NCBI GenBank assembly: GCA_964539465.1
Contig: CAZIIL010000001.1
Coordinates: 1 to 26,105 of the forward strand
Direction: 5' to 3'
DNA: 26,105 bases
Source: an uncultured Candidatus Saccharibacteria bacterium
Lineage (GTDB): Bacteria > Patescibacteriota > Minisyncoccia > Minisyncoccales > CAYTKG01
Shown piece by piece: positions 1 to 21,987 of this stretch. Position 1 is the stretch's first letter; each line of letters opens with the position of its first letter. The notes beneath the pieces were generated by a model. The model was not told where the DNA came from and searched no databases. It worked only from the letters and a program-made list of their open reading frames with translations. The translations under genes and the position numbers were made by a program.

Positions 1-474
1 AGGCTTGGATGGGATGGGGAGGTAACGCCTGATGTGTCCCTTGACGCCGAAGGCGTTGATTCCTCAACATCAGGTATTGAGGGGGGTGGAGAAATAGGAC
101 CTATGGAACAAATAGGGCAAATAGTAAAGCAAGCCCTCGCTGCGCTCGGGCTTGTATTTGAGGAAGGAGCAGCCCATATTGAGAAATTATTTGCCAAGGA
201 AATCGTGGTTGAGACAGCCAAGATTGAAAGGATAGAAATGATAGACCAAGCAACAGGAGAACCCTGGTGCACATGGATTGAAAATGGCGAATGGCTCAGG
301 GCGCAGGCATCTTGTGAAGACCTGCAACAAGGCGATGTGGAGTTGATATCTCCAAGCAGTGCAGGCGAGGAAGAAACAGGAGAAACAGAAGAGGCGTCAG
401 AGGATATTGAAGCCCAGATACAGCGTTTGCAGGAGATGATGGAGGAGTTGTTGGAAATGAGAGAAGGTCTATAG
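1..474 (+). CDS. C-terminal part (5'-truncated) of a probable large secreted/surface protein, acidic tail
   Basis: Frame is open from position 1 (RLGWDGEVTPDVSLDAEG...) to TAG at 472-474, so the gene starts outside the window. The segment LGLVFEEGAAHIEKLFAKEIVV..IEMIDQATGEPWCTWIENGEW resembles C-termini of CPR giant/tail-fibre-like proteins (recollection, unverified). Confidence 0.55.
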   Translation, partial: RLGWDGEVTPDVSLDAEGVDSSTSGIEGGGEIGPMEQIGQIVKQALAALGLVFEEGAAHIEKLFAKEIVVETAKIERIEMIDQATGEPWCTWIENGEWLRAQASCEDLQQGDVELISPSSAGEEETGETEEASEDIEAQIQRLQEMMEELLEMREGL

Positions 475-574
475 GACAAATAGGACGAATACGCCTCAAG
501 GCAAAGTTTCACTTTGCTTTAAGGGGGAGCAAGCAGATAAAATCTGCTCGCCCTGCAGAGCTTTGCTCCGCAGA
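471..574 (+). repeat. Mosaic palindromic element, copy 1
   Basis: ATAGGACAA-ATAGGACGA-ATACGC, then hairpins CAAGGCAAAG-TTTCA-CTTTGCTTT, GAGCAAGCAGAT-AAA-ATCTGCTCGC and GCAGAGCTTTGCTCCGC. Confidence 0.9.
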
Positions 575-606
575 ACACAAAAAGCCCTTGAAAGGGCTTT
601 TTGTGT
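575..606. terminator. Bidirectional intrinsic terminator
   Basis: Perfect 14-bp stem ACACAAAAAGCCCT-TGAA-AGGGCTTTTTGTGT with A and T tracts. Confidence 0.8.
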
Positions 607-615
607 GTGTTTTTA

Positions 616-624
616 TGTTAAAAT
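616..624 (+). promoter_or_regulatory. Extended -10 promoter (TGnTAAAAT), probably leaderless transcript
   Basis: TG-T-TAAAAT ends 6 nt before the ATG at 631; no SD present. Confidence 0.5.
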
Positions 625-630
625 AAAGCG

Positions 631-1692
631 ATGAAAAAGAGATTATTAGTAATTGACGCTAATGCGTTGGTGCATCGGGCATATCATGCCTTGCCGCCGC
701 TGAAAACAAAGAAAGGCGAATTGGTCAACGCTGTTTATGGCTTTTTATCAGTTTTTCTGAAAACAATAAAAGAACTCAAGCCGGATTATGTGGCGGCTTG
801 TTTTGATATGCCGGGTCCGACCTTTAGGCATAAAGAGTATAAAGAATACAAGGCAACACGGCCCAAAGCGCCAGATGAATTATATGAACAGATTCCAAAA
901 ATCAAGAGCTTTTTAGATGTTTTTAATGTCCCAATTTTTGAGAAACAGGGATTTGAGGCGGACGATATTCTTGCTACTATAGCAGAGAGTATGAGTGGGA
1001 CTAATGGGACCAGTACGCAGCAAGGCAAAGATAAGCTCCGCCCTGGAGAAGAAATAGAAACAATCATACTCACCGGAGATATGGATATCTTGCAGTTGGT
1101 GGGCAAGAATACCAAAGTATTTGCTTTGAGAAAAGGCATAAAAGATATGGTTTTATACGATAGCGCTAAGGTTCAAGAAAAATACGGCCTCTCCCCTGCT
1201 CAAATATCAGATATGAAAGGGTTGATGGGCGACGCTTCTGACAATATTCCTGGAGTGCCGGGCATTGGGCCAAAGACAGCCAGCCAATTACTTCAAAACT
1301 TTGATACGCTGGAGGGGGTTTATAAAGACGGGCTGGCAGAGCCAGCCCGTCACAATAAGACCTATAAAACCAATAGGACCAATACGCTCGCCGAAGAGGC
1401 GGGGAAGAGACGGGCTGGCCAAGCCAGCCCGTCTGGCGGAGCTTCGCTCCGCAGGGAAAGCGCAATAAGCCCGAGAATAAAAGAACTGTTGCTAAAATAC
1501 AAGGAGCAAGTGTTTCTTTCAAGGATGCTGGCAACTCTTAGATATGATGTACCTGTTCGTTTTCAACTGCAGGATTGTTTGTGGAAGGATTTTAACAAAG
1601 AAAAAGCAGCCCAGATGCTAAAGGATTTCGAATTTTATAGTTTGATTCAAAGATTGCCTGGAGAGCAAAGAGAACAGCGCGCCTTGTTTTAA
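631..1692 (+). CDS. Stand-alone 5'-3' exonuclease/flap endonuclease (PolA N-terminal domain) with two repeat-derived in-frame insertions
   Basis: LVIDANALVHRAYHA, FEADDILAT, ILTGDMD, LMGDASDNIPGVPGIGPKTA (H3TH motif). No polymerase domain follows. Confidence 0.93.
   Translation: MKKRLLVIDANALVHRAYHALPPLKTKKGELVNAVYGFLSVFLKTIKELKPDYVAACFDMPGPTFRHKEYKEYKATRPKAPDELYEQIPKIKSFLDVFNVPIFEKQGFEADDILATIAESMSGTNGTSTQQGKDKLRPGEEIETIILTGDMDILQLVGKNTKVFALRKGIKDMVLYDSAKVQEKYGLSPAQISDMKGLMGDASDNIPGVPGIGPKTASQLLQNFDTLEGVYKDGLAEPARHNKTYKTNRTNTLAEEAGKRRAGQASPSGGASLRRESAISPRIKELLLKYKEQVFLSRMLATLRYDVPVRFQLQDCLWKDFNKEKAAQMLKDFEFYSLIQRLPGEQREQRALF
996..1045 (+). repeat. Degenerate mosaic element inside the exonuclease CDS
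   Basis: 996-1030 matches intergenic copy 10114-10148 at 30/35 nt; encodes GTNGTSTQQGKDKLRP. Confidence 0.75.
1328..1463 (+). repeat. Full mosaic element inside the exonuclease CDS
   Basis: ACGGGCTGGC-AGA-GCCAGCCCGT, degenerate 9-mers ending AATAGGACCAATACGC, CGCCGAAGAGGCGGGG, AGACGGGCTGGC-CAA-GCCAGCCCGTCT, GCGGAGCTTCGCTCCGC. Confidence 0.92.
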
Positions 1693-1707
1693 ACAAAAGG
1701 GGCAATG

Positions 1708-1716
1708 TGGTAAAAT
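1708..1716 (+). promoter_or_regulatory. Extended -10 promoter candidate for the signalling locus
   Basis: TG-G-TAAAAT about 50 nt upstream of the ATG at 1769. Confidence 0.4.
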
Positions 1717-1768
1717 GAGAAAAAGGCTAAAAGGTCGGGTTAGTAATTATTAATTATCAAAAAATACT

Positions 1769-2332
1769 ATGAACGAAGAAAAACAATATTCAGAAGAAGC
1801 GCAGTGGTTTCTGCACAATCTTCAACGACTTCAGGACGACTTTGCTGAAGCGGTTGGAGCTCAGATTGTAACAACAGATAAAGAAGGCGCTTTATTGACC
1901 AAGATGAGCGGACAGCAAAAGATTTGCCAGATTATTCAAAGGACAGAAAAAGGAAAACAAGGATGCCAAAATGCCTATGAAACAGCACTTTCGCTGGTAA
2001 AAAAGATGAAAGAAGCGGCATTTATGGATTGCCATGCCGGACTTGCTTCGCTCTGGGTCCCGATTAAGGTGAGAGATGAAATAGTGGGTTCTATTACTGG
2101 ATGTGGCGGGAGGTATGACCGTGGTGAATCAGAGGAAGAGTTAAGAGAAAAGTTTGCTGCCAAAGCAGATGAATTGGGAGTGGTAGAAGAAGATAAAAAA
2201 GAGTTTCTTGATGCGCTATCTGAAGTAAAAGTAATTACCGAAGAAGAAATGCGGAAAAGAGCTGAAAGATTGGCAAAATTGGTGGGAATATTGGCCCAAG
2301 AGACTGCTATGAGTGAGGTTTTTGGGCTGTGA
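1769..2332 (+). CDS. Stand-alone PocR ligand-binding (sensory) domain protein
   Basis: LQRLQDDFAEAVGAQIVTTDKEG..., CQII...C, CHAGLASLWVPIKVRDEIVGSI match the PocR domain pattern. Confidence 0.8.
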   Translation: MNEEKQYSEEAQWFLHNLQRLQDDFAEAVGAQIVTTDKEGALLTKMSGQQKICQIIQRTEKGKQGCQNAYETALSLVKKMKEAAFMDCHAGLASLWVPIKVRDEIVGSITGCGGRYDRGESEEELREKFAAKADELGVVEEDKKEFLDALSEVKVITEEEMRKRAERLAKLVGILAQETAMSEVFGL

Positions 2333-2333
2333 C

Positions 2334-2370
2334 GGGGAGGCGGGCTGGCTTTGCCAGCCCGCAATAGGAC
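2334..2370 (+). repeat. Mosaic element (single hairpin plus one 9-mer core)
   Basis: GGGAG-GCGGGCTGGC-TTT-GCCAGCCCGC-AATAGGAC. Confidence 0.85.
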
Positions 2371-2377
2371 AATCACT

Positions 2378-3244: not shown

Positions 3245-3246
3245 GT

Positions 3247-3843: not shown

Positions 3844-3911
3844 AAATCCACAGACATTTCTGTTGAGCCCGAGAAAATATTAAATGTTAGTCAACCAATA
3901 GATTAATCAAG

Positions 3912-5459: not shown

Positions 5460-5506
5460 GAAAAAACGCCAAGGTTTTAGGTTTTATTCTCTTGACTCAA
5501 TTATTT

Positions 5507-5563: not shown

Positions 5564-5947
5564 ATGGTGGCAAGCATAAGAAAAAAGATTTTATTAATAG
5601 AAGACGAAGAAATAATGATTGATTTACTCCAAAGGAAGTTGGAGAAAGAGGGCTACGAAGTAAAACTTGCTCGGGATGGAGAAGAGGGTTTAGAAAAAAT
5701 AAGACAGGAAATGCCGGATTTAGTTCTCTTAGACATTGTTATGCCGAAAGTGGGAGGGCTTGAGGTTATGGAAGAGATTAGCAAAGACCAAGAATTGAAA
5801 AAGAAACCAGTGATTATTATTTCCAATTCAGGCCAGCCAGTGGAATTAGAAAGAGTTAAGGAATTAGGGGCTCGAGATTGGTTGATAAAAACTGAATTTG
5901 ACCCGCAGGAGGTATTAGATAAAGTTAAGCAGCAGATAGGAAAATAA
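5564..5947 (+). CDS. Single-domain response regulator (receiver only)
   Basis: ILLIEDEE, PDLVLLDIVMP (phospho-Asp), IIISNSG, LIKTEFDP. Confidence 0.93.
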   Translation: MVASIRKKILLIEDEEIMIDLLQRKLEKEGYEVKLARDGEEGLEKIRQEMPDLVLLDIVMPKVGGLEVMEEISKDQELKKKPVIIISNSGQPVELERVKELGARDWLIKTEFDPQEVLDKVKQQIGK

Positions 5948-6120
5948 ATCTCAAATCTTTCACCCACCCGAATTTTCGAAGAAAATTTGAGTGGACAAGA
6001 ATCTACATCTCAAAACCTTAAATCTTTTAGTTTTTCATCTATTAGTTTTGAGATTTGGCTGACCTGCCTCGCCGAAGACGACGAGTCGAGGCGGGAAGAC
6101 TCGTTCGGTGAGACGAGGCG
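5947..6120. repeat. Composite repeat region: heptamer inverted array, short palindrome and GC hairpin module
   Basis: TCTCAAAAC (6008-6016) pairs with GTTTTGAGA (6046-6054); AATTTTC-GAA-GAAAATT; CCTGCCTCG...CGAGGCGGG. Confidence 0.6.
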
Positions 6121-6146
6121 TTAAAATATATTAATTTTAACTGACA

Positions 6147-6526: not shown

Positions 6527-6680
6527 ATAGGACGCATATGCCGCAAGGCAAAGTGAAACTTTGCCTTGTGTTGCCAGCCCGCTCTTGGTAGCGGACTTTT
6601 CTTTTCTGTGGAAAACCTGTGTATAAAGTGTTCGATGCCGGGCATCGAACACTTTATAAAAACTGGCCACTGCCAGTTTT
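6527..6680 (+). repeat. Mosaic element with paired DnaA-box-like motifs and an 18-bp palindrome
   Basis: ATAGGAC, CGCAAGGCAAAGTGAAACTTTGCCTTGTG, GCCAGCCCGC, TGTGGAAAA-CC-TGTGTATAA, TATAAAGTGTTCGATGCC-G-GGCATCGAACACTTTATA, AAAACTGGC-CACT-GCCAGTTTT. Confidence 0.88.
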
Positions 6681-8021: not shown

Positions 8022-8032
8022 TTTTTTAGGCA

Positions 8033-8108
8033 AAATAGGACCGATAGGCCGCAAGGCAAAGTTTCATTTTGCCTTGCGGGAGAGCGAGCAGATAAAATCT
8101 GCTCGCTC
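8033..8108 (+). repeat. Mosaic element between the divergent rpsT and ruvA genes
   Basis: ATAGGACCG-ATAGG, CCGCAAGGCAAAGTTTCATTTTGCCTTGCGG, GAGCGAGCAGAT-AAA-ATCTGCTCGCTC. Confidence 0.9.
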
Positions 8109-8796: not shown

Positions 8797-10113
8797 ATGG
8801 AGAACAAAGTGCTTTGCTTTTTTATTAATCAATATCATTTTTTGTGGGCTCTATTGGGCGCTATATTCTTTGGTTTTTTATCTTGTCTTCACAGATGCTT
8901 TAATAAGCGGGCAAAAAAGATAAAGATTATCGGAGTTACTGGGACAAGCGGCAAATCCACCGTGATTGATTTGACAGGCAATATATTAGAGGAAGCGGGC
9001 TACAGGGTTGCAACTCTGTCTTCAATCAAATTCAAGATTGGCAACCAAGAGCAGAAGAACAAAATGAGAATGACAATGCCCGGTCGGGCTGTTATTCAGA
9101 GATTTCTTTGGCAGGCAATGAGGGCTGGTTGTGAATATGCCATATTAGAGATTACATCCGAGGGAATCTTGCAGCACAGGCATAGATTCATTGATTTTAA
9201 TGCAGCGGTTTTTACCAATCTAAGTCCTGAGCATATTGAACGCCATGGCTCATTTGAGAACTACAGAGAAGCAAAAGCAAGGTTTTTTAGAGCAGTGAAA
9301 AAGACACATATAATCAATTTAGACGATAAGAATGCTGATTATTTTTTGCAATTTTCAGCAGGCAGGAAATATCTTTATAATCTCAAATCTGAATCGTCAA
9401 TCGCCAATGGTGAAATTACTGCAGAGGGCGCGGCAGTTTCAAGTTCCGGAGTAAGTTTTTCTGTAAGAGGTGTTAAGTTTAATCTGAAATTATTAGGCAG
9501 ATTTAATATCTATAATGCTCTTGCTGCAATATGTGTCGGTCTTTCTCAAGGCATTGATTTGGAAACTTGTAAAAAAGGATTAGAAAAGATAAGGGGCGTC
9601 TCGGGGAGGATGGAGTTGATCATTTCTAAGCCCTTTAGGATTTTTGTTGATTACGCCATTACCCCCAACGCATTAGAGCAGGTTTATCAAACAATTAGAC
9701 AGAACTTTCTCTCTATGGATTCTCTAAATGCACAGGGCGGGAAAATGATTTGTGTTTTTGGTTCTTGCGGCGGGGGAAGGGATAAGTGGAAGAGGCCGGT
9801 TATAGGAAGATTGGCGGCTCAATATTGCGACAAGGTGATTCTTACTAACGAAGACCCTTATGGCGAAGACCCAGAGCAGATTTTATTGGAAATAAAATCT
9901 GGAATTCCGAACGAAAAAATGCCGATAGTAAGCTTGATTTTAGACAGGCGAGCAGCTATTAAGAAAGCGCTTGATTTAGCTCGAGAAAACGACACTGTTA
10001 TTATTACTGGCAAGGGTTGCGAGCCCTCTATGTGCTTGGCAAAAGGGAAACAGATAGCATGGGACGACAGGCAAGTGGTGAGAGAAGAATTTGAGAAATT
10101 GACTAAGAGATAA
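8797..10113 (+). CDS. murE: Mur ligase, MurE-like (UDP-N-acetylmuramyl-tripeptide synthetase family)
   Basis: IGVTGTSGKST, LEITSEG, FTNLSPEHIERHG, Y.EAK, GRFNIYNALAA, VSGRME, FGSCGGGRDKWKRP, TNEDPY, IITGKG. Confidence 0.8.
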   Translation: MENKVLCFFINQYHFLWALLGAIFFGFLSCLHRCFNKRAKKIKIIGVTGTSGKSTVIDLTGNILEEAGYRVATLSSIKFKIGNQEQKNKMRMTMPGRAVIQRFLWQAMRAGCEYAILEITSEGILQHRHRFIDFNAAVFTNLSPEHIERHGSFENYREAKARFFRAVKKTHIINLDDKNADYFLQFSAGRKYLYNLKSESSIANGEITAEGAAVSSSGVSFSVRGVKFNLKLLGRFNIYNALAAICVGLSQGIDLETCKKGLEKIRGVSGRMELIISKPFRIFVDYAITPNALEQVYQTIRQNFLSMDSLNAQGGKMICVFGSCGGGRDKWKRPVIGRLAAQYCDKVILTNEDPYGEDPEQILLEIKSGIPNEKMPIVSLILDRRAAIKKALDLARENDTVIITGKGCEPSMCLAKGKQIAWDDRQVVREEFEKLTKR

Positions 10114-10222
10114 TAGGACGAATAGGACCAATACGCTGCAAGGCAAAGTGAAACTTTGCCTTGCGGGGAGGCGGGCTGGCAAAGCCAGCCCGCCCAGCGA
10201 AGCTTCGCTCCGCAGAAAAAGC
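10112..10222 (+). repeat. Mosaic element between murE and archease
   Basis: ATAGGACGA-ATAGGACCA-ATACGC, GCAAGGCAAAGTGAAACTTTGCCTTGC, GCGGGCTGGC-AAA-GCCAGCCCGC, GCGAAGCTTCGCTCCGC. Confidence 0.92.
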
Positions 10223-10227: not shown

Positions 10228-10632
10228 ATGAAGAATTTTGAGATTTTAGAACATAGCGCAGACCTGAAGATTAGGGCTTTTGGCAGCGATAAAGAGCAGC
10301 TTTTTTGGAATATGATGCGGGGAATGCAGGCGAGCTTGCGGTCTAACCCAAGCGAACAGAAAACAGAAACAAAAATAATGGTTCAATCCGAAGACCTGCT
10401 ATCTTTATTAGTTGATTTTTTATCAGAAATTAATTATCTAAACGAGATTAATCAAGAGGTTTATTACAGAATAAAGTTTGATAAATTCTCCGACACCGAG
10501 TTAGAAGCTGAACTTTCTGGCTACAAGGTCAAAAGGTTTGGGTTGCAAATCAAGGGAGTTACCTTTCATGATTTAGATGTGAGCCAGAAACAAGATGGGC
10601 AATGGGAGGCAACGGTTTTGTTTGATATATAA
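10228..10632 (+). CDS. Archease
   Basis: FEILEHSADL.IRAFG, LLVDFLSE, IKGVTFH, C-terminal LFDI; immediately upstream of rtcB. Start moved to ATG 10228. Confidence 0.92.
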   Translation: MKNFEILEHSADLKIRAFGSDKEQLFWNMMRGMQASLRSNPSEQKTETKIMVQSEDLLSLLVDFLSEINYLNEINQEVYYRIKFDKFSDTELEAELSGYKVKRFGLQIKGVTFHDLDVSQKQDGQWEATVLFDI

Positions 10633-10636
10633 AATT

Positions 10637-13588
10637 ATGGGGAAAAAGATATTTAAAAAAATTAATGATTATCTGTGGGAGATTCCGGCAAGCCACCGTA
10701 GGTTTATGAGGGTTCCAGCGCGGATTTATGCTTCTGAGAAAATATTAGAAGATGTGGAACCCGATGCCTTGGAGCAATTAATCAATGTTGCGTCTTTGCC
10801 TGGAATTGTCAAATATTCTTTTGCTATGCCAGACATTCATACCGGCTATGGTTTTGTTATTGGCGGCGTGGCGGCTACAAAACTTCCAGAAGGCGTGATT
10901 TCTCCCGGCGGTATCGGTTTTGACCAGAATTGCACCGTTCCCAACACAAGAGTTTTATCAAGCATGGGTTTTTACTTACCCATTAAGGACCTAGAAAAAA
11001 ACAAAACGAAAGTAAGATTTGTTGATATTGATAAGAATAATTTAGGAACTTCAGAGGTTATCCGTTTCATAAAGCAGTATAATAATCCAAGTATCTATAA
11101 GATAACTACAGAATCAGGGGAAGAATTAGAAGTTACAAAGGATCATCCCATTCAAACGGAGAGTGGCATGAAGGAGGTTAGAAATGTTAAAAATGGGGAG
11201 AAAGTATTAATTTATCCCTTCAAAGGAGTGGAATTCCAATATCCTGTTTCAGATGTTATTTTGAATGAGGAAAAATTTAGAAAAATTCTGAAAAAATTCA
11301 ATAAAACTGAGAAAGGAAATGCTATTCTGCAAATTTTAAATTATATTAAATTCCGAGGGTTTTTGCCCTTGAGATATAATTCTCCTTCCTTACCTCATAT
11401 TTTAAAAATAATGGGGTTTATTTTTGGCGATGGGGCTGTGACAATTAATAAAGACGGAAAGGGAACCGTACAGTTTTATGGGAAAAAGGAGGACTTGGAA
11501 CAAATCCGTGAAGATGTAAAAAGAATTGGCCTTGTGCCCTCGAGAATATATTCCCGAGAAAGAAACCATTCTATTACTAATTTTTATGGCAAGCAGGAAT
11601 TTACGACAACCGAGCAACACTTTAAGGTAACTACCACTGCCTTCGCACTTTACTTGGTGGCTCTCGGGACACCCTATGGCCTTAAAGCGCATCAGGAATA
11701 TAGAGTTCCAGAATGGATTTTCAATTGTCCATTATGGCAAAAGAGATTGTTTTTAGCATCTTTTTTCGGAGCTGAACTTTCAAAGCCTTCAACCTCTAAT
11801 AATAAGTATAATCTTCATGCACTACAGTTTAGTGTAAGCAAGAAAGTAGAGTTGAAAGAAAATGCAAAAATGTTTTTAGAAGATATTAAAAGACTTTTAA
11901 GCGGTTTTGAGATCGGAAGTTCGCCTATTCAAGAAGTCCCTGGTTATCAATATAATGGTAAACTCGGGAAGACAACTGCTTTTAGGCTACATATTAATGG
12001 AAATAGTGAAAATCTTATAAGATTTTTTGAGTCAATTAGCTATGAATATAATCAAGAAAGACAAAGAGAGGCTTGTTTAGCGGCCAGTTACTTAAAAAGG
12101 AAATTGAGAATAGTAGAAATTAGGACTAAGACAAGGGACAGGGCATTTGAGCTTTATAAACAGGGAGAAAAAATAAAAAATATCATTAAAAGCCTTTCCA
12201 GCAGATATGCTCCTCCTCAATTTATTAAACACTCGTTTTTCAAGAGTAAAAGAGGAAAACCAAGAATCTCTTTTGATTTTCTATCCTTTGAAGAATACAA
12301 GAAGAAATATGCTTTTGGGGAGAGTGGTTTGGTTTGGGAGAAAATTGAAAAGATAGAAGAGATTCCATACTCAGGTTCTGTTTTTGACATTACTATCAAT
12401 GATATAAATCATAACTTTATTGCTAATAACTTTGTTGTTTCAAATTGCGGGATTCGTGTTCTGAAAACAGAATACAAGAAAGAGGAAATTATGCCTTTTA
12501 TTGATAGATTGGCAACAGAAATGCAGAGACGGGTTCCGTCTGGATTAGGCAGAGGACATAAAACAAAGTTAAGCGTAGCGCAGATAGACAAAGTATTGAA
12601 AAATGGTGTTTCCTATCTTGTGAGCCAAGGATATGGCGACGAGCAAGATATAGAAAATTGCGAGGCAAGAGGCAAGATGGAGCAGGCAGATGTAGCTACG
12701 GTTTCAGAAAGAGCTAAAAATAGAGGCAGGAACCAATTGGGTACATTGGGCAGCGGCAACCATTTTCTTGAAGTCCAAAAAGTTGAGGAAATTTTTGACG
12801 AACAAACAGCCAAAGTTTTTGGGCTTTTTGAGAATCAAGTAGTAGTAATGATTCATACGGGTTCCAGAGGGTTAGGGCATCAAAATTGTACTGATTATTT
12901 GAGGATTGTAATGAAAGCAATGCCGAAGTATGGGATAAGCCTGCCGGATAAGGAATTGGCGTGTGTTCCATTTAATTCTTCTGAGGGGCAGAGATTTTTT
13001 GGGGCTATGTCGGCTGCTGCTAACTTTGCGTGGGGAAATCGACATATGATAAGCCATTATGTCAGGAGAGCGTGGCAGGATGTTTTGGGCAAGGAAGCAA
13101 AGCTTGACTTGCTTTATGATGTTGCCCATAACATTGCTAAGGTTGAAGAGCATATAATTGATGGCAAGAAAATGAAATTATGTGTTCATCGCAAAGGCGC
13201 GACAAGGGCTTTCCCGCCAGGGCATTTGGAGATTCCAGCGCAATATAGGACTGTTGGCCAGCCGGTTTTAATTCCTGGTTCTATGGGAACTGCTTCTTAT
13301 ATTTTAGCCGGAACAGAACAAGGCAGCCCATCTTTTTTCTCAACCTGCCACGGCGCTGGCAGAAGGATGTCGCGAACCAGAGCAAGAAAAACTATTTCAG
13401 GGGAACAAGTTATTGAGGAGTTGAAAAGAAAAGGAATCTTGGTAAGATGTTATTCAGTAAGGGGTATTGCCGAAGAAGCGCCTCTTTCTTATAAAGATGT
13501 TGATAATGTGGTTGAGGTTGTGCATCAGGCAGGCCTGGCAAAAAAAGTAGCGAGGTTGGTGCCCTTGGCTGTTATTAAAGGAGAATAA
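10637..13588 (+). CDS. rtcB: RNA-splicing/repair ligase RtcB, intein-containing (478-aa extein)
   Basis: MPDIHTGYG, GGIGFDQN|CGIR, GSGNHFLE, HTGSRG, HNIAK, HRKGATRA, STCHGAGR. Confidence 0.96.
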   Translation: MGKKIFKKINDYLWEIPASHRRFMRVPARIYASEKILEDVEPDALEQLINVASLPGIVKYSFAMPDIHTGYGFVIGGVAATKLPEGVISPGGIGFDQNCTVPNTRVLSSMGFYLPIKDLEKNKTKVRFVDIDKNNLGTSEVIRFIKQYNNPSIYKITTESGEELEVTKDHPIQTESGMKEVRNVKNGEKVLIYPFKGVEFQYPVSDVILNEEKFRKILKKFNKTEKGNAILQILNYIKFRGFLPLRYNSPSLPHILKIMGFIFGDGAVTINKDGKGTVQFYGKKEDLEQIREDVKRIGLVPSRIYSRERNHSITNFYGKQEFTTTEQHFKVTTTAFALYLVALGTPYGLKAHQEYRVPEWIFNCPLWQKRLFLASFFGAELSKPSTSNNKYNLHALQFSVSKKVELKENAKMFLEDIKRLLSGFEIGSSPIQEVPGYQYNGKLGKTTAFRLHINGNSENLIRFFESISYEYNQERQREACLAASYLKRKLRIVEIRTKTRDRAFELYKQGEKIKNIIKSLSSRYAPPQFIKHSFFKSKRGKPRISFDFLSFEEYKKKYAFGESGLVWEKIEKIEEIPYSGSVFDITINDINHNFIANNFVVSNCGIRVLKTEYKKEEIMPFIDRLATEMQRRVPSGLGRGHKTKLSVAQIDKVLKNGVSYLVSQGYGDEQDIENCEARGKMEQADVATVSERAKNRGRNQLGTLGSGNHFLEVQKVEEIFDEQTAKVFGLFENQVVVMIHTGSRGLGHQNCTDYLRIVMKAMPKYGISLPDKELACVPFNSSEGQRFFGAMSAAANFAWGNRHMISHYVRRAWQDVLGKEAKLDLLYDVAHNIAKVEEHIIDGKKMKLCVHRKGATRAFPPGHLEIPAQYRTVGQPVLIPGSMGTASYILAGTEQGSPSFFSTCHGAGRRMSRTRARKTISGEQVIEELKRKGILVRCYSVRGIAEEAPLSYKDVDNVVEVVHQAGLAKKVARLVPLAVIKGE
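10931..12445 (+). mobile_element. Intein with LAGLIDADG homing endonuclease (505 aa)
   Basis: N-terminal Cys (CTVPNTRV), block B (TKDHPI), block C IMGFIFGDG, block E FLASFFGAEL, C-terminus FDITI..NHNFIANNFVVSN followed by Cys+1. Confidence 0.93.
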
Positions 13589-13593: not shown

Positions 13594-13715
13594 AATCTCA
13601 AAACTCAAATCTCAAAACTCAAAACCACAACCTTAAATGTCAAAATTAATAGATAAAGGAATAAAAATTTAAGGTTTTAAGATATCCCTACCTGCCTACC
13701 GGCAGGCAGGCAGGG
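13594..13715. repeat. Heptamer tandem array with partial inverted copy, plus a short palindrome
   Basis: Seven 7-mers from 13596 (TCTCAAA ACTCAAA TCTCAAA ACTCAAA ACCACAA CCTTAAA TGTCAAA), then TTTAAGGTTTTAAGAT and CCTGCC-TACC-GGCAGG. Confidence 0.75.
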
Positions 13716-13801
13716 ACTTAATTTTTAACTAATGTCTAACAATCTTTGCTTATCAAAGACGATGGGCTTGAGGTGGACTCTCATTAATTTATTTTCGACT
13801 T

Positions 13802-13948: not shown

Positions 13949-14892
13949 AGATTCAAGAAATATACAATTTAGCTCTTCAAATGGGCAAGGAGAGCGATTT
14001 CCGAGGAGCCGAGAGTATAGAAAAAATGCTAAAGAGACGAAGAGAATTGTTCGATAAACTGCCAGAAGAAAAGAAAAAGGATTTTGATAGAGATGATCTG
14101 ATTAACCCTTTCCCCGACTCAAGGGTTCTCAATGTGTCAGAAGATAAAGAAATAAAAAAGATTATGTTCGGCATTGACATTGCTCCAGCCGAACTCTTAA
14201 TGGCAAAGGAGATTGAAGGCATTGACCTAGTTATATCTCATCATCCTTTGGGAAAAGGATTAGCCAAATTATGGAGTGTGATGCAGCTTCAATGCGATGT
14301 CTTAGCTTATTATGGCGTGCCCATAAACATTGCCGAGGGTTTGATGACAGAAAGGATATCAGAGGTGGCTCGCGGGATTAATGCAATTAACCACCAAAGG
14401 ACAGTAATGGCTGCCGAACTATTGGGCTTTAATCTAATGTGCCTGCATACTATTTGCGATAATTTAGCCGCCAGATTCTTAAGAGAAAATATTGAGTCGG
14501 CAAAACCAGAAAGAGTTGGGGACATTATTGATTTACTCAAAAAACTCCCTGAATATCAAAAAGCGGTAAGCATTGGGGCGGGGCCAAAAATATTTGTCGG
14601 CAGTAGAGAGAACAGATGCGGCAAGATTGCCCTGACAGAGATTACTGGCGGCACCGAGGGCTCATCTAAGATTTATCAGAAAATAGCTCAAGCAGGTATT
14701 GGTACGGTGATAGGAATGCATATGAGCAAGGAGCATTATGAAGAAGCCAAGACAGCTTTCATTAATGTAGTGATTGCTGGGCATATGTCTTCTGATTCCT
14801 TGGGAATAAATATATTCTTAGATGAGTTGGAGAAAAGAGGAATTGAAATTGTCCCCTGTTCTGGTTTAACTCGTGTGTCGCGGGTGAAGTAG
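13945..14892 (+). CDS. NIF3/YqfO-like dinuclear metal-centre protein
   Basis: KKIMFGID, DLVISHHP, MCLHTICDN, IGTVIGMH, IAGHMSSDSLG. Confidence 0.8.
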   Translation: MKIQEIYNLALQMGKESDFRGAESIEKMLKRRRELFDKLPEEKKKDFDRDDLINPFPDSRVLNVSEDKEIKKIMFGIDIAPAELLMAKEIEGIDLVISHHPLGKGLAKLWSVMQLQCDVLAYYGVPINIAEGLMTERISEVARGINAINHQRTVMAAELLGFNLMCLHTICDNLAARFLRENIESAKPERVGDIIDLLKKLPEYQKAVSIGAGPKIFVGSRENRCGKIALTEITGGTEGSSKIYQKIAQAGIGTVIGMHMSKEHYEEAKTAFINVVIAGHMSSDSLGINIFLDELEKRGIEIVPCSGLTRVSRVK

Positions 14893-14897
14893 AACGT

Positions 14898-15072
14898 ATA
14901 GGACCAATAGGACCAATACGCCCGCCGAAGAGGCGGGGGAAGAGCAAGCAGATTTTATCTGCTTGCTCTGCGGAGCTCCGCTCCGCAGGGAAAAGAGCAA
15001 AGCTTCGCTTTGCAGGAAAAAACTGTGGAAAATCTGTGCATAAAGTGTTCGATGCCGGGCATTGAACACTTT
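14898..15072 (+). repeat. Mosaic element with paired DnaA-box-like motifs and a long palindrome
   Basis: ATAGGACCA x2-ATACGC, CCGCCGAAGAGGCGG, AGAGCAAGCAGAT-TTT-ATCTGCTTGCTCT, GCGGAGCTCCGCTCCGC, GCAAAGCTTCGCTTTGC, TGTGGAAAA-TC-TGTGCATAA, AAAGTGTTCGATGCC-G-GGCATTGAACACTTT. Confidence 0.92.
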
Positions 15073-15083
15073 TGAGAAGCTAT

Positions 15084-16700: not shown

Positions 16701-16704
16701 TTAA

Positions 16705-17427: not shown

Positions 17428-17447
17428 TGGACCCTGCGCTAAAATTT

Positions 17448-17519
17448 GTCCCTGTAGTCCAATGGATAGAACATCGGCCTCCGGAGCCGAAGATGCGCGT
17501 TCGAATCGCGCCAGGGACA
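17448..17519 (+). tRNA. tRNA-Arg (anticodon CCG), CCA not encoded
   Basis: Acceptor GTCCCTG/CAGGGAC, anticodon arm TCGGC-CTCCGGA-GCCGA, T-arm GCGCG-TTCGAAT-CGCGC. Confidence 0.96.
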
Positions 17520-17520
17520 C

Positions 17521-17668
17521 ATAGGACACATAGGAAAAAATAGGACGAATAAGAAAAATAGGACATATAGGACCGATAGGACCAATACGCCCGCCGAAGA
17601 AGCGGGGAAGAGCCAGCCCGCGCAGCGGAACTTTACTCCGCTTTGCTCTGGGGAGCGTCGGGCAACGC
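17521..17668 (+). repeat. Mosaic element with the longest 9-mer array (7 units), abutting the tRNA 3' end
   Basis: ATAGGACAC, ATAGGAAAA(A), ATAGGACGA, ATAAGAAAA, ATAGGACAT, ATAGGACCG, ATAGGACCA, then ATACGC, CCGCCGAAGAAGCGG, GCCAGCCCGC, GCGGAACTTTACTCCGC. Confidence 0.92.
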
Positions 17669-17670
17669 AT

Positions 17671-17698
17671 TTGACAAATCCTTTTTTAGCAGTAAAAT
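17671..17698 (+). promoter_or_regulatory. Sigma70 promoter
   Basis: TTGACA-16 nt-TAAAAT; predicted start near G17705. Confidence 0.65.
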
Positions 17699-17704
17699 AG
17701 TTTT

Positions 17705-17837
17705 GAGGGAGTGAGGGGGCAGTGTCCTCCAAAGGCAATAATGCTGACAAGTAAATATTGCCGGGTGCGCGTATAATTGGGATATTGCTTATTCCAAGGC
17801 CCAAGGCCCGGCGCTGTTTACCAAGCTAAACTCCCTT
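17705..17837 (+). ncRNA. Candidate structured small non-coding RNA, family unassigned
   Basis: GC-rich ORF-less stretch between a consensus promoter and a strong terminator; 5' and 3' ends pair; internal hairpins present. Confidence 0.5.
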
Positions 17838-17873
17838 CCCCAGCACATAAGACCTATGTGCTGGGTTGTTTTT
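17838..17873 (+). terminator. Intrinsic terminator
   Basis: CCCAGCACATA-AGACC-TATGTGCTGGG followed by TTGTTTTT. Confidence 0.8.
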
Positions 17874-17923
17874 GACAATGTTATTGGGTTATAATGAAAA
17901 AAGATTAACAAAATTTCTAAATA

Positions 17924-18532
17924 ATGAAAAGCAATAAATTTAAATATAAGATAGCTGTGTCTGGGGCAGAGGCGACAGGCCATTGCAGTAAAGATGCCGC
18001 TGAAAGAGCAAGGGAGATTGGGAGGCAGATTGTCAAACATAAAGGAGTGCTTCTTACTGGCGCTTGCTGGGGCATGCCATACGAAGCCGCGACTGGGACC
18101 GAAGAGGCAGGGGGAATTTCTATAGGCGTGTCGCCAGCCATTTCGGAGAAAGACCATTATGAACAGTTTAAAATGCCCACCGATAACTTTGACCTGATAT
18201 TCTATACTGGCTATGGTTTTTCAGCCAGAAATGTTTGGCTGATGCGGATGGCTGACGCTGTTATCTTTATCTGCGGCCGAATGGGCACATTAAACGAATT
18301 TACTATCTGCTTTGAGGATGATAGGTTAATAGGCATTTTAGAAGGAAGCGGCGGCACAGCTGATATTATAAGGAACATAGTCAGCAATACCCATAAGGGT
18401 CCTGGGAAGATTATTTATGAGAAAGACCCCAAAAAATTAGTAGAAAAGATTTGTCATGCCATTGACAAAGAAAAGAAAGAAATGGAGGTCTATTTCGAGG
18501 TTCAAAAATTCATCAAGGGTCGCAAGTTTTAA
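17924..18532 (+). CDS. LOG/SLOG-family Rossmann-fold protein (TIGR00725-like)
   Basis: IAVSGA, AREIGRQI, LLTGACWGMP, SIGVSP, RNVWLMRMADAVIFICGRMGTLNEF. Confidence 0.8.
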   Translation: MKSNKFKYKIAVSGAEATGHCSKDAAERAREIGRQIVKHKGVLLTGACWGMPYEAATGTEEAGGISIGVSPAISEKDHYEQFKMPTDNFDLIFYTGYGFSARNVWLMRMADAVIFICGRMGTLNEFTICFEDDRLIGILEGSGGTADIIRNIVSNTHKGPGKIIYEKDPKKLVEKICHAIDKEKKEMEVYFEVQKFIKGRKF

Positions 18533-18563
18533 TAAAAAGGTCGTAAATTTTAGGTTAAATTTT

Positions 18564-18839
18564 ATGTCTCAAGAAAACAATAAACTTGAAGAGTGGAAAT
18601 TAATCGGCAAGGTAACCCATTACTTTGATAAAGCAGGAGTAGCTGTGCTTGAACTTTCTTCTATTCTAAAACAAGGAGAGACCATTAGGATTGTGGGAGG
18701 GATAGATACTGATTTCGAGCAAGTAGTTAAGTCCATGGAAATAGAACATGAAAAGATAGAAACAGCGAAGAAAGGAGATATTATCGGCTTAAAAGCAAAA
18801 GAGAAGGTGAGAGAGGGCTACAAGGTCTATAAGAAGTAG
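18564..18839 (+). CDS. Small beta-barrel protein, translation elongation factor domain II-like
   Basis: LIGKVTHYFDKAGVAVLEL..LKQGETI.I.G..TDFEQ.V.SMEIEH..IE.AKKGD.IGLK; start at ATG 18564. Confidence 0.75.
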   Translation: MSQENNKLEEWKLIGKVTHYFDKAGVAVLELSSILKQGETIRIVGGIDTDFEQVVKSMEIEHEKIETAKKGDIIGLKAKEKVREGYKVYKK

Positions 18840-18970
18840 GGTGGCAGGATACAGTTTGTTTATTTAGACCCCTTTACATGGAAATCTCGCCACAAAAAGG
18901 TTGCTATGTAAAGAGTCCATAGATAATGCCTTGAGGGCTTTAAGCCCGGGCAGGCATTAGTTTCTTTAGA

Positions 18971-19303
18971 ATGACAAAAAAGAGATGGCCAGAGGAGATT
19001 TATCAAAGGGTTAGCATCCCGGATCTGATTTTGGTTTCTCTTTTGTCTTTAGAAGCTTCAGGCAAGAAGATTAATTTTGAAGAATTGCTAAAACAGTGCT
19101 TTGACCTATTCCCTCGCAGATTTAGTTTTTCAAAAATGAAATGGCCGGATGCCAGAAAGATTGACCGACCCCTGAGAATGCTTCGAGTTCAGAACCTGAT
19201 TAGGAATAGGTCCGAGACCGTTCTTGTTCTTACCAATAAGGGCAAAAAAAAGGCATTAAGCGCAATGAACCTTCTTCGGCAAAAGAAATTAAAGTTGAGA
19301 TGA
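18971..19303 (+). CDS. Hypothetical basic protein, possible winged helix
   Basis: DLILVSL...INFEELLKQCFDLFP..FSF..MKWPDARKIDRPLR.LR...LI......LTNKGKKKA has a wHTH-like ending. Confidence 0.55.
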   Translation: MTKKRWPEEIYQRVSIPDLILVSLLSLEASGKKINFEELLKQCFDLFPRRFSFSKMKWPDARKIDRPLRMLRVQNLIRNRSETVLVLTNKGKKKALSAMNLLRQKKLKLR

Positions 19304-19374
19304 AGAATAATGCAAGAGGATAGCCACAGCGGCGGCTTAAGCTCTTCTCGGCATCTTATTAAATTTAGATTTTT

Positions 19375-20421
19375 ATGGACGAGCAACATCTTTTAGAGAT
19401 TTCTTGGGGGACAATCCTGAAACTTGCAACCGCCTTTTTCTGTTTCTATCTTATCTTTTTAATAAAAGACATCCTGATATTGTCTTTATTTGGTTTAGTT
19501 ATCTCTATTTTATTTGAGGTGCCTATTCGGCGGTTAGCAAAAAAGGTGCCGCGGGGCTTGGCTGTCGCCTTTCTTTATGTTTTGGTTTTTTCGATTCTTG
19601 TGTTTTTGATATATCTTCCAGCATCCAGGATTGTTTCTGAAATCCGCAATTTTATTAAACTATTCCCTGTTTACTTTGAAGAACTTTCTCCACCCCTAAG
19701 AGGATTAGGACTTGAGGCGTTTAAGGATATAGAGAGCTTTGTTGATATGTTAGAAAGATTGGTTCAGATGATGACCTCGAACATCCTTAATGTTTTGTTT
19801 TCTATCTTTGGCGGAATTGCTTCAACTATTTTTGTTGTCTCGGTTGCCATTTTTCTTTCCCTGGAAGGAAAGACAATAGAAGATAACATTATCCTTTTCT
19901 TTTCTCAGAGCGATAAAAAGTTTGTAAGGGCTCTCTGGCGAAGATGCCAGAAAAAGGTTGGTCTTTGGTTTGTAAAAACTATCATGGGCTGTCTTTTTGT
20001 CGGTTTGAGCTCTTATCTGGGGTTTCTGGTTTTAGGAGTGAACTATCCCCTTTCTCTTGCCGCAATGGGAGGGGCATTTAATTTTGTTCCTAACTTGGGG
20101 GCTGCCTTGGCAAGTTTTCTGATTTTTATCATACTTTCTCTGGATTCTGTGTCAGCGGCGCTCTTTGCTTTAGTAATATATATTATTGTCCAACAGATTG
20201 AAAATAATATTATCAGCCCCCTTCTAAGCAAGAAATTGGTTGGTCTTTCTCCAACTCTTGTTCTGATTGGCTTAGCCGCTGGTGGGAAATTATTTGGTAT
20301 TATCGGCGCAATCCTCACAGTGCCTTTATTGGGAATTATTGTTGAATTTGGCAGGGGCTTATTGCAGAAAAAAAGAGAAGCCGAAGCCGAAGCCAAAGCT
20401 GAAGCCGAAGCCATAGTGTAA
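19375..20421 (+). CDS. AI-2E (PerM) family transporter
   Basis: Multi-TM; FNFVPNLG, IVQQIENNIISPLL.KKLVGLSP.LVLIGL..GG.LFGIIGAIL.VP. Confidence 0.88.
   Translation: MDEQHLLEISWGTILKLATAFFCFYLIFLIKDILILSLFGLVISILFEVPIRRLAKKVPRGLAVAFLYVLVFSILVFLIYLPASRIVSEIRNFIKLFPVYFEELSPPLRGLGLEAFKDIESFVDMLERLVQMMTSNILNVLFSIFGGIASTIFVVSVAIFLSLEGKTIEDNIILFFSQSDKKFVRALWRRCQKKVGLWFVKTIMGCLFVGLSSYLGFLVLGVNYPLSLAAMGGAFNFVPNLGAALASFLIFIILSLDSVSAALFALVIYIIVQQIENNIISPLLSKKLVGLSPTLVLIGLAAGGKLFGIIGAILTVPLLGIIVEFGRGLLQKKREAEAEAKAEAEAIV
20377..20412 (+). repeat. Coding hexamer tandem repeat (GAAGCC)n
   Basis: Six units, one variant (AAAGCT), encoding EAEAEAKAEAEA. Confidence 0.85.
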
Positions 20422-20449
20422 TTATTCCGAAAATTAATGTTTAAACGAT

Positions 20450-21922
20450 ATGACAAAGAGATTCTATGTCACCACAGCAATAGATTATGTTAATGCTCCT
20501 CCCCATATAGGCCATGCTCTAGAGAAGATACAAGCGGATGTATTGGCAAGGTATCATCGTTTTTTGAAAGAGGATGTTTTTTTTCTAACCGGTACGGATG
20601 ATAATGCTCAAAAGAATGTGCAGGCGGCTGATAAACAAGGACTTCCCATACAGGAATTCACCAATAGAAACGCAGCGGTTTTTAAAGAAATGGGAAAACT
20701 CTTAAATGTATCTAACAACGACTTTATCCGAACCAGCAGCAAGTCCGAACATTGGCCAGGGGTAGTTAAACTCTGGCAGGAATGTCAAAAAGCAGGCGAT
20801 ATTTATCAAAAAGAATATTCGGGACTTTATTGCTTGGGGTGCGAGGCATTTATAACGGAAAAGGACCTGGAAAACGGGCTTTGCCCAGAACACCTGAAAG
20901 CGCCGGAGCGGGTTTCTGAGAAGAACTATTTTTTTCGTCTTTCAAGATATCAAGACAAATTAAAGAGATTAATTAAAAGCGATAAATTAAGGATTGTTCC
21001 AGAGAAAAGAAAGAATGAAACCCTAAAGTTTATTGAGTCGGGCTTGGAGGATTTCAGCGTTTCGCGGCCAGCCGAACGGATGAAAAACTGGGGCATTCCT
21101 GTCCCCGGCGATAATAGCCAGATTATCTATGTCTGGTATGACGCCCTAAGCAACTATATTACTGGCTTGGGCTATGGAAGAAAGGACAATAAATTATTTA
21201 AAAGATTCTGGCCAGCCGATGTCCATGTTATAGGCAAGGGAATTCTGCGTTTCCATGCGGTTTTTTGGCCTGCTATGATACTTTCTACTGGATTAGAATT
21301 GCCTCGGACAATATTTGTTCATGACTATATCACTGTTGGTGGGCAAAAGATGTCAAAGACAATAGGAAACATTATTAACCCTATTGAGTTGGTAGAGAAA
21401 TATGGGACAGACCCTGTCAGATATTTTTTCCTAAGGGAGTTTTCTCCCTTCCAAGATGGAGATTTTTCCTACAAGCGATTGGAAGATAGATATAATTCTG
21501 ATTTAGCAAAAGGGTTAGGAAATTTGACGGCCAGGATTCTAACAATGGCTCAAAAAACATTTACGGAAAGTGTTAAGTATAACCCCGATTCTCAATTTAA
21601 GAGTTTATTTGAAAAAACTACAAAACAGATAGGACAGCATATGCAGAACTTTCGTTTTAATGATGCTGTAGCCGCTGTCTGGCAGTTGATAGGATTCTGC
21701 GATAGATATATTGAGAAAGAGCGACCATGGGAAGAAGGAAAAGAACAGGCGCTCAATAATCTGCTTGCCGCTTTATCCCACATTGCTTTAAGTCTGCAGC
21801 CGTTTTTGCCAGGTACTTCAGAAAAGATTTTTAAACAATTGGGGATAAAGAATAAAAGCAAACCATTATTATTCAGGGTTGGAAAAGGTGAGTCACTATT
21901 TCCCCGCTTGGAAAAGGAATAG
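20450..21922 (+). CDS. metG: Methionine--tRNA ligase (short form)
   Basis: FYVTTAIDYVNAPPHIGH, TGTDDNAQK, YCLGCE, CPEH, YVWYDAL, GKGILRFH, KMSKT. Confidence 0.97.
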   Translation: MTKRFYVTTAIDYVNAPPHIGHALEKIQADVLARYHRFLKEDVFFLTGTDDNAQKNVQAADKQGLPIQEFTNRNAAVFKEMGKLLNVSNNDFIRTSSKSEHWPGVVKLWQECQKAGDIYQKEYSGLYCLGCEAFITEKDLENGLCPEHLKAPERVSEKNYFFRLSRYQDKLKRLIKSDKLRIVPEKRKNETLKFIESGLEDFSVSRPAERMKNWGIPVPGDNSQIIYVWYDALSNYITGLGYGRKDNKLFKRFWPADVHVIGKGILRFHAVFWPAMILSTGLELPRTIFVHDYITVGGQKMSKTIGNIINPIELVEKYGTDPVRYFFLREFSPFQDGDFSYKRLEDRYNSDLAKGLGNLTARILTMAQKTFTESVKYNPDSQFKSLFEKTTKQIGQHMQNFRFNDAVAAVWQLIGFCDRYIEKERPWEEGKEQALNNLLAALSHIALSLQPFLPGTSEKIFKQLGIKNKSKPLLFRVGKGESLFPRLEKE

Positions 21923-21987
21923 GATACATAGGACCAAATAGGATTAATACGCCGCAAGGCAAAGTGAAACTTTGCCTTGCGGCGTAT
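21918..21987 (+). repeat. Mosaic element with a perfect 19-bp hairpin
   Basis: 9-mer-like units followed by ATACGCCGCAAGGCAAAGT-GAA-ACTTTGCCTTGCGGCGTAT. Confidence 0.92.

Follow-up and report, generated by a model that had tools for sequence, protein, structure and literature searches.

A candidate lineage-specific family of mosaic palindromic repeats in a Parcubacteria contig

Introduction

Members of the candidate phyla radiation have small genomes that are usually called streamlined and repeat-poor. What, then, are the short tandem repeats and palindromes that recur in related combinations at ten loci of a 26,105-bp metagenome contig (CAZIIL010000001.1, analysed as a whole and hereafter called the window), the proteins of which have their closest named homologues in metagenome-assembled genomes of Parcubacteria/Patescibacteria? 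An initial annotation described the loci as one modular palindromic family placed at gene junctions, similar to the mosaics of repetitive extragenic palindromic (REP) sequences known as bacterial interspersed mosaic elements (BIMEs). Following our analysis, we consider it somewhat probable that the ten loci constitute a lineage-specific, non-coding and non-autonomous mosaic family akin to REP/BIME, BOX and Rickettsia palindromic elements (RPEs), selfish or nearly neutral to the host, which has recently spread in one Parcubacteria lineage. The family is not confined to the window, as its modules are also present on two independent assemblies, L001 (3,769 bp, ENA ERZ24794679), the closest relative, and L027, a 1,553-bp Joint Genome Institute (JGI) contig. 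These three contigs, the only ones on which the family was detected, ~31 kb in total and available as sequence alone, are the material from which copy number and spread in the lineage are extrapolated.

Results

Ten loci assembled from one set of parts

All ten loci were recovered and, as initially claimed, share one kit of parts, detected as repeat families D1-D13 and inverted pairs I1-I20. Compared with expectations from dinucleotide shuffles of the window, the core motifs are strongly enriched: ATAGGAC occurs 19 times, exclusively on the plus strand, against 1.89 expected, CAAGGCAAAG 16 times against 3.4 (at most one mismatch), GCCAGCCCGC 11 times against 0.63 (at most one mismatch) and GCTTCGCTCCGCAG five times against 0.10 (at most two mismatches). 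Calculated from the coordinates, the family sums to ~1,030 nt, equivalent to ~4% of the contig and ~29% of its ~2,950 nt of non-coding DNA.

Read along the plus strand, a copy starts with one to seven nonamers, which lead to a closing unit (ATACGCC or a variant thereof) and a first slot occupied by hairpin B or E, followed by a purine-rich linker (GGGGAG or GGAAGAG), a second slot holding hairpin C or D, and finally F, sometimes F' and sometimes a longer module, G. Hairpin D is in addition found ahead of the tract (at 1327, 2340 and L001 3578). Up to three hairpins, GC-rich and almost perfect, fill these slots in a copy. The module order proved constant with two alternatives per slot, and the free shuffling of modules first envisaged was consequently abandoned. 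The hairpins B to F comprise 5-20 pairs and are present in 3-8 copies each over the 26 kb, L001 and L027, representing repeated extragenic imperfect palindromes of 20-40 nt of the REP type, while the tandem nonamer, with 1-7 units at each of ten loci, is a short unit repeated at many unlinked sites in the manner of the short tandemly repeated repetitive (STRR) motifs. Among 37 intergenic nonamer units, the information content amounts to 1.5-1.8 bits at each of positions 1-6 (ATAGGA), 0.9 bits at position 7, only 0.24 at position 8 and 0.75 at position 9, figures that may include an ascertainment bias at the tract ends.

The earlier observation that loops flip independently of their surroundings is borne out, since the flanks stay constant as the loop inverts (TTC or GAA in B, AAA or TTT in C, and TTT, AAA, AGA or CAA in D). 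Hairpin F is different in that its loop always has the same sense, and all tracts and all F hairpins are located on one strand. The stems are kept paired through double changes, as evident in B (A-T to G-C, window versus L001), in C (G-C versus A-T, 8082 versus 14942), in D (A-T versus G-C, 1327 and 1408 versus 10170) and at two positions between F and F'. Hence, hairpin loops invert in place and stems remain paired. Copies also decay: the right arm of D stands alone at 6573 and 17612 and the left arm of B at 1020, and the locus at 471 has one mismatch in each of its three stems, compared with a nearly perfect counterpart in L001 (two stems perfect, B with one mismatch).

Copies inside the exonuclease gene

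The placement at gene junctions holds for most loci, with the exception of 996-1048 and 1327-1456, which are situated in frame inside the exonuclease open reading frame (ORF) 631..1692, so that two of the ten loci are intragenic. Both inserts are absent from ~120 homologues; the window protein encompasses 353 residues, and the listed homologues, which lack the insert segments, mostly 290-335. In an AlphaFold model of the exonuclease (mean predicted local distance difference test score, pLDDT, 80.9; predicted template modelling score 0.80), the only internal residues with a pLDDT below 50 are 125-134 and 238-274, equivalent to the two inserts. The family has in this manner added ~60 residues, predicted to be disordered, to an essential nuclease, and is tolerated as an in-frame insertion in these loops of the enzyme. 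This matches the behavior known from RPEs, with the reading frame kept and the predicted fold left intact around low-pLDDT loops.

Insertion relative to syntenic relatives and rapid turnover

Four syntenic relatives (L047-L050), with a MurE or exonuclease ~55-65% identical to that of the window, allow the occupied junctions to be compared. No family modules are present in any of the four, nor in L051, a second contig with the same exonuclease as L050. The spacer between murE and the archease gene, which in the window measures 114 nt and holds locus 7, is 64 nt in L047, -4 in L048, 2 in L049 and -4 in L050, the two genes overlapping or abutting in three of the four. Similarly, the spacer from RR2 to the next gene is 155 nt in the window, compared with 58, 46, -4 and 6 nt, respectively. 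Because the relatives are free of modules and their junctions are mostly short or overlapping, the copies of the window are insertions relative to these genomes.

Comparison with L001 provides a view over a shorter distance, as its exonuclease is 78% identical to that of the window overall and nearly identical outside two loops. Nevertheless, whole modules differ within the gene: a D block and a D-F block are present in the window alone, and an E-B stretch in L001 alone. Upstream of the exonuclease there are four nonamers in L001 versus two in the window, and the gene further upstream differs between the two, with the switch falling at an element. The spacer between the exonuclease and PocR genes is 299 nt with a ~210-nt element in L001 versus 76 nt and no element in the window, and at the PocR junction L001 combines D and five nonamers with the left arm of B and an inverted repeat of 86 nt, compared with D and one nonamer in the window. 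Module content therefore changes between very close relatives.

The 86-nt inverted repeat (GTCATACTGAGG...CCTCAGAATGAC) is found twice within the 3.7 kb of L001 (2810-2895 and 3675-3760), where it is either embedded in or substituted for the loop and right arm of hairpin B, and thereby represents an extra kit module beyond those of the window. L027 is 100% identical to window positions 21947-22133 and unrelated upstream, with the break inside a nonamer tract; possible causes are recombination at the repeat, the presence of a paralogous copy and a chimeric assembly. Further searches for the lineage were less productive: no relative above 64% identity was retrieved with MurE, exact-protein look-ups of RR2 and archease gave no match, and a fused query of eight small window proteins was dominated by multi-receiver-domain proteins, with no useful further lineage contig.

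How the family may spread, and what speaks against it

For the selfish or nearly neutral family that we favor, new copies would arise from existing ones, by the action of an enzyme encoded elsewhere or else by recombination or template switching from copy to copy. Recombination at the shared linkers would swap the hairpin alternatives, slippage would alter the number of nonamer units, and template switching within palindromes, an established process for quasi-palindromes generally, would produce both the loop flips and the perfect stems. Selection would then leave surviving copies chiefly just after the stops of leading-strand genes, and any effect on RNA, exerted by very stable hairpins in 3' untranslated regions, would be a by-product.

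Several observations weigh against this interpretation. In eight of the nine cases in which a tract follows an ORF, its first TAG shares the frame of the stop of that ORF (binomial P ~0.001); in three of these the TAG is the stop codon itself, and with those removed the phase is kept in five of six (P ~0.018). Such phasing counts against a purely selfish insertion because the latter predicts none. Moreover, the module-free relatives have short tandem repeats of their own at some of the same junctions, often starting from the stop codon, including CCCTAAA/TAGGGTC (telomere-like, from stop codons), TGAAAC, CTCAAAA-like heptamers and five copies of the 11-mer AAAGCCAAGAT, and it could be that 'something' is needed there. 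The conserved ATAGGA combined with a free position 8 looks like a recognition site. No direct repeat indicative of target duplication is visible at the filled and empty sites exonuclease/PocR, murE/archease and RR2/holA, where the divergence of the relatives or the degeneracy of the empty site precludes base-exact boundaries. No inverted pair spans a whole element, the left end being a nonamer tract and the right end F or G, and inspection by eye detected no conserved tetranucleotide beside the hairpins, as the sequences 5' of B to F (ATACGCY, GGGGAG/GGAAGAG and CCYAG) have no motif in common. Finally, Pfam scans of 26 window ORFs (with precomputed hits for the exonuclease) revealed only housekeeping, signalling and unknown proteins and no transposase, integrase, HUH or reverse-transcriptase gene, in agreement with the initial annotation as regards the transposase.

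The stop-codon phasing and the junction repeats of the relatives had both been missed in the first description of the loci, and both keep a functional reading alive, the main rival being a selected RNA signal at gene ends. In that case the tract would supply in-frame back-up stops and/or a single-stranded ATAGGA platform for an RNA-binding factor, the hairpins would protect the 3' end from exonucleases or attenuate read-through, and fast turnover would mimic mobility. Congruent with such a role, eight of the ten loci are at gene ends and co-oriented with transcription, the hexamer core is conserved next to a free spacer, and the stems are maintained by double changes, in addition to the phasing and to the different tandem repeats right after stop codons in relatives. 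RNA folding likewise predicts unpaired tracts beside very stable hairpins, with z-scores of -3.9 to -9.2 in nine of ten elements, the decayed locus 17521 being the sole exception (-0.74). On the other hand, copies are also present inside a coding region and between divergent genes (8026-8108), half modules and mismatched stems are tolerated, and in L050 the same junctions measure no more than -4 and 6 nt, arguing that no signal is needed there. The hairpins furthermore lack U-tracts and ordinary terminators exist in the window. Weighing both sides, we regard a selected gene-end signal as a serious but doubtful alternative to the selfish family.

Intrinsic terminators were evaluated as an identity for the hairpins and rejected, as the canonical ones are located elsewhere (575-606, 17839-17865 and 22520-22541). 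In a loose scan of the plus strand the only family hairpin to pass is B of locus 10, with a weak tail; F' passes on the minus strand, and a match at 6569-6593 overlaps the half-D.

The second rival concerns the means of spread, namely movement, as initially proposed, of single-stranded DNA hairpins by a Y1 HUH enzyme encoded elsewhere, similar to the REP-associated tyrosine transposases (RAYTs) or the TnpA of IS200/IS605, which would explain the single polarity through the lagging-strand template. The perfect short palindromes agree with this proposal, as do the confinement of all tracts and F hairpins to one strand under a positive GC skew throughout, the addition of modules beside existing modules, and the lack, expected of the mechanism, of a visible target-site duplication. 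However, the guide or cleavage tetranucleotide (GTAG in REPs) has no conserved equivalent 5' of the hairpins, no such gene is found within the 26 kb, and the nonamer tract is without counterpart in REP or IS200/605 ends. The strand polarity is also confounded with gene direction: since GC skew is above zero across the full window and most genes are on the plus strand, the family polarity agrees with the leading strand as well as with the direction of most genes, and the two are inseparable here. We therefore judge HUH-driven movement to be unlikely.

Binding sites at the level of DNA, occupied by DnaA in module G or by a nucleoid or iteron-like protein in the nonamers and with a function in replication or chromosome organisation, appear very improbable. 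The conserved ATAGGA core at a fixed 9-bp pitch and the single strand polarity are compatible with protein binding, and each G copy includes two 8-of-9 matches to the DnaA box, the origin of the initial assignment of a DnaA-box pair. That assignment did not survive, as the window has nine matches against 5.8 expected and 12 of 100 shuffles reach nine; TTATCCACA-like boxes with one mismatch form no significant cluster, the four in the two G copies being copies of one repeat. There is, moreover, no dnaA or dnaN context in the window, the 9-bp pitch is out of helix phase, and both the intragenic copies and the lack of modules in close syntenic relatives speak against an essential role in the chromosome.

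Distribution outside the lineage

The distribution of the family is narrow or poorly sampled. A strict tract pattern had no match in Patescibacteria among 185,579 GTDB species, and L027 is the only JGI metagenome contig of this lineage among the tract matches. A known RNA family was rejected as an identity, as Rfam 15 yielded the tRNA-Arg as sole match (next best E = 0.03, below the gathering score), and so was a phage or plasmid origin, since viral contigs gave no match to the tract, hairpin B or the inverted-repeat module of L001, and blastn against plasmids and phages no match to the family. A literature search returned no match to the exact tract strings and no link between Patescibacteria and REP-like elements.

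Unexpectedly, the same tract pattern, 24 nt long, is matched by 13 GTDB genomes from unrelated phyla and by ~30 further metagenome contigs; by our estimate, ~1 GTDB match would be expected by chance. The exact string ATAGGACnnATAGGACnnATACGC occurs well above chance in Acidobacteriota, Planctomycetota, Nitrospirota, Lentisphaerota, Armatimonadota and Bacteroidales (among L002-L046; examples in Table 1). Several of these tracts are positioned next to housekeeping genes (selA/selB, dnaB and prs/ispE) and, being flanked by these and not by transposases, were rejected as transposon ends; another is at a yggS-like stop codon. The intergenic ones often consist of a tract, ATACGCC and an inverted tract, with the first TAG sometimes being a stop codon. 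In five deltaproteobacterial contigs, in contrast, a conserved non-coding motif was rejected, as the string there is the opposite strand of the sequence for the VLLVLL signal peptide (SVYVLLVLLALY) that a substrate-binding protein carries. Another group of matches appears, by our translation, to encode a Gly-Tyr-Ser-rich protein, and further matches are within long ORFs. The cross-phylum set is thus mixed, and its members, possible relatives of the window family, are not used for the main conclusion. Conceivably, the nonamer tract is a stop-codon-anchored signal, with ATAGGA at 9-nt pitch closed by ATACGCC, that is read by a conserved protein or the ribosome and marks gene ends both here and in unrelated phyla (Acidobacteriota, Planctomycetota, Nitrospirota and others). 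We find this improbable; if true, it would represent a widely shared and previously unrecognised punctuation element at gene ends, with the hairpin modules as lineage-specific add-ons.

Coordinates, gene content and further repeats of the window

The individual features are compiled in Table 1. Because locus 6 is located between divergent genes, it is not in a 3' untranslated region.

Table 1. Repeat-family features of the window and related sites on other contigs.
Feature	Contig	Position	Strand	Description
Locus 1, tract	window	471..494	+	Two units (ATAGGACAA, ATAGGACGA) and closing ATACGC; first TAG (472-474) is the stop of ORF 34..474
Locus 1, hairpin B	window	494..524	+	Loop TTC, 13 pairs, 1 mismatch; decayed copy
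Locus 1, hairpin C	window	527..551	+	Loop AAA, 1 mismatch
Locus 1, hairpin F	window	553..573	+	Loop TTT, 1 mismatch
Canonical terminator outside the family	window	575-606		Directly after hairpin F of locus 1
Locus 2	window	996..1048	+	In frame inside exonuclease ORF; two degenerate nonamers (GTGGGACTA, ATGGGACCA), GTACGC, left arm of B, F-like fragment; encodes SGTNGTSTQQGKDKLRPGE
Locus 3, hairpin D	window	1327..1351	+	Inside exonuclease ORF; loop AGA, 11 perfect pairs; not in L001
Locus 3, tract and hairpin E	window	1355..1403	+	Nonamers ATAAGACCT, ATAAAACCA, ATAGGACCA, ATACGC; E is CTCGCC-gaaga-GGCGGG
Locus 3, hairpins D then F	window	1408..1456	+	D loop CAA, F loop TTC; not in L001; locus 3 in total encodes ~45 extra residues
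Locus 4	window	2334..2372	+	GGGGAG linker, D (loop TTT), one nonamer ATAGGACAA just before ATG at 2378
Locus 5, tract and hairpins	window	6527..6582	+	One nonamer, ATATGC, B (loop GAA), right half of D alone
Locus 5, module G	window	6606..6664	+	TGTGGAAAA-cc-TGTGTATAA and palindrome with arms of ~19 nt; between convergent RR2 and holA
Locus 6	window	8026..8108	+	Degenerate unit, one nonamer, ATAGGC closing unit, B (TTC), C (AAA); between divergent rpsT (-) and ruvA (+)
Locus 7, tract	window	10113..10136	+	Two nonamers and ATACGC; begins one codon past the murE stop (TAA TAG ...)
Locus 7, hairpins	window	10134..10215	+	B (loop GAA), D (loop AAA), F; between murE and archease gene
Locus 8, tract	window	14889..14921	+	Degenerate unit holding the NIF3-gene stop TAG, two nonamers ATAGGACCA, ATACGC
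Locus 8, hairpins	window	14919..15013	+	E, C (loop TTT), F (loop TCC), F' (GCAAAGC-ttc-GCTTTGC)
Locus 8, module G (second copy)	window	15023..15081	+	88% identical to 6606-6664; between convergent genes
Locus 9, tract	window	17521..17590	+	Seven nonamers and ATACGC; directly after tRNA-Arg(CCG) 17448-17520
Locus 9, hairpins	window	17590..17650	+	E (1 mismatch), right half of D alone, degenerate F-like hairpin; decayed copy
Locus 10	window	21919..21987	+	Three nonamers (first TAG is the metG stop), B with 19-pair perfect stem including ATACGC/GCGTAT
Junction repeats of relatives	L047	5136-5167, 6092-6138, 19588-19620
Junction repeats of relatives	L048	1792-1834, 4094-4140, 4623-4659
Junction repeats of relatives	L049	archease/rtcB spacer
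ATAGGACnnATAGGACnnATACGC string	L006	2858, 5650
ATAGGACnnATAGGACnnATACGC string	L003	12, 5277
ATAGGACnnATAGGACnnATACGC string	L011	4348
ATAGGACnnATAGGACnnATACGC string	L008	426

The window encodes a 5'-3' exonuclease, a PocR-domain protein, a histidine kinase and two receiver proteins, holA, rpsT, ruvA, murE, archease and RtcB with an intein, NIF3-like and ELP3-like radical-SAM proteins, a methyltransferase and the tRNA-Arg, as well as a SLOG protein, an AI-2E transporter, metG and leuS. The RtcB gene (10595-13588; 997 aa in total) is split by the intein, which includes a LAGLIDADG homing-endonuclease domain, and is uninterrupted in L047 and L048 (479-500 aa).

A second repeat kit is present in the window in the form of a CTCAAAA heptamer tract of four copies after rtcB (13594-13625), with an inverted relative at 6025-6055. 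In the syntenic relatives, murE and the archease gene also contain in-frame heptamer tracts, translated as loops rich in Lys, Asn, Gln and Thr. Also belonging to the second kit of the window are an E-like interrupted hairpin at 6061-6125 (within 5946-6125) and a separate GC palindrome at 13685-13716. At locus 9, the 3' end of the tRNA-Arg (GGGACAC; …CAGGGACAC; 17514-17529) is nonamer-like and continuous with the first unit, ATAGGACAC, suggestive of a tract that started from, or was directed to, the GGAC-containing tRNA end.

A promoter close to the consensus (TTGACA-16-TAAAAT, matching at 11 of 12 positions) precedes by ~140 nt the strong terminator at 17839-17865, and this unit (17671-17870), directly upstream of a SLOG/LOG-like gene (17924..18532), looks like a riboswitch or small RNA; Rfam gave no match for it. 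Two 63-nt leaders with 86% identity (22017-22079 and 22588-22650) each precede a small gene (22043..22510 and 22671..23276), the products of which look like secreted proteins by our reading. The stretch holding the leaders, 22001-24000, has a raised GC content (0.46) and may be a movable or duplicated cassette, being found in L027 beside a different upstream neighbour. Simple tandem repeats outside the kit include four copies of AGGGC (23345-23364), adjoining a GC hairpin downstream of gene 22671..23276, and six copies of GAAGCC (20377-20412), encoding the EAEAKAEAEA tail of the AI-2E transporter.

Discussion

Should the density observed in the window hold for the whole genome, the family would count among the major forces that expand junctions and break synteny in the lineage and would be a source of new protein loops, as well as a practical cause of fragmented or chimeric metagenome assemblies and a sensitive strain marker. 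As each examined syntenic relative has a junction-repeat kit of its own, the data suggest that repeats arise at the ends of genes in the clade through a general, undescribed process. The stop-codon phasing and the conserved ATAGGA core are unexplained by the REP, RPE or miniature inverted-repeat transposable element (MITE) models.

Comparison with known systems

REP sequences and BIMEs are present in enterobacteria and pseudomonads, mobilised by RAYT, and display a conserved GTAG-like tetranucleotide at the hairpin foot. The initially noted resemblance to them, with unrelated sequences, is apt, as the window harbors one modular, palindromic and mostly extragenic family with flipped loops. In common with what is generally known of REPs, its members are short GC-rich palindromes in an AT-richer genome, mostly just after genes, forming mosaics with conserved linkers and hairpins in either orientation, and numerous relative to the non-coding DNA. 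Nevertheless, the sequences are unrelated, no GTAG-like foot or RAYT is seen in the window, and the leading nonamer tract, the single polarity of the whole element and the intragenic copies set the family apart.

RPEs are palindromic repeats of a small genome that insert in frame in housekeeping genes and are tolerated as an extra surface peptide (PMC10969869). The two in-frame inserts in disordered exonuclease loops are reminiscent of this. Compared by description rather than by sequence, an RPE is however a single unit of ~100-150 bp with a conserved encoded peptide and often intragenic, unlike the modular family here, which starts with nonamers and is intragenic at two of ten loci. The BOX elements of Streptococcus pneumoniae, composed of boxA, a variable number of boxB and boxC, are intergenic, have stable RNA folds and cluster with RUP and SPRITE (PMC10969869). 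They share with the window family the modularity, the variable number of tandem units and the clustering with, or insertion beside, other repeats, but their modules of 45-59 nt contrast with units of 9 nt and hairpins of 20-40 nt, and sequences and host phylum are unrelated.

The STRR heptamers of heterocyst-forming cyanobacteria similarly place the same short unit in tandem at many unlinked, mostly intergenic sites, and by the title of Vioque 1997, as cited in PMC2858038, STRR sequences also occur within a functional gene, that of RNase P RNA. True heptamer tracts (CCCTAAA/TAGGGTC and CTCAAAA) are found in the relatives of the window. In the window family, by contrast, the unit is 9 nt and not a heptanucleotide, stop-codon phased, terminated by a special closing unit and in every case accompanied by hairpins. 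MITEs such as Correia and the Neisseria intergenic mosaic elements are likewise small non-autonomous intergenic repeats that form transcript hairpins, the latter being mosaics too, with the difference that neither element-spanning terminal inverted repeats nor target-site duplication nor a parent insertion sequence was found for the window family.

Collectively, the intergenic mosaic palindromic repeat is known as a general kind. Judged against the literature and libraries searched, novelty lies in the sequences and the host group, in the nonamer tract and its closing unit, in the slot grammar and in the phasing with stop codons.

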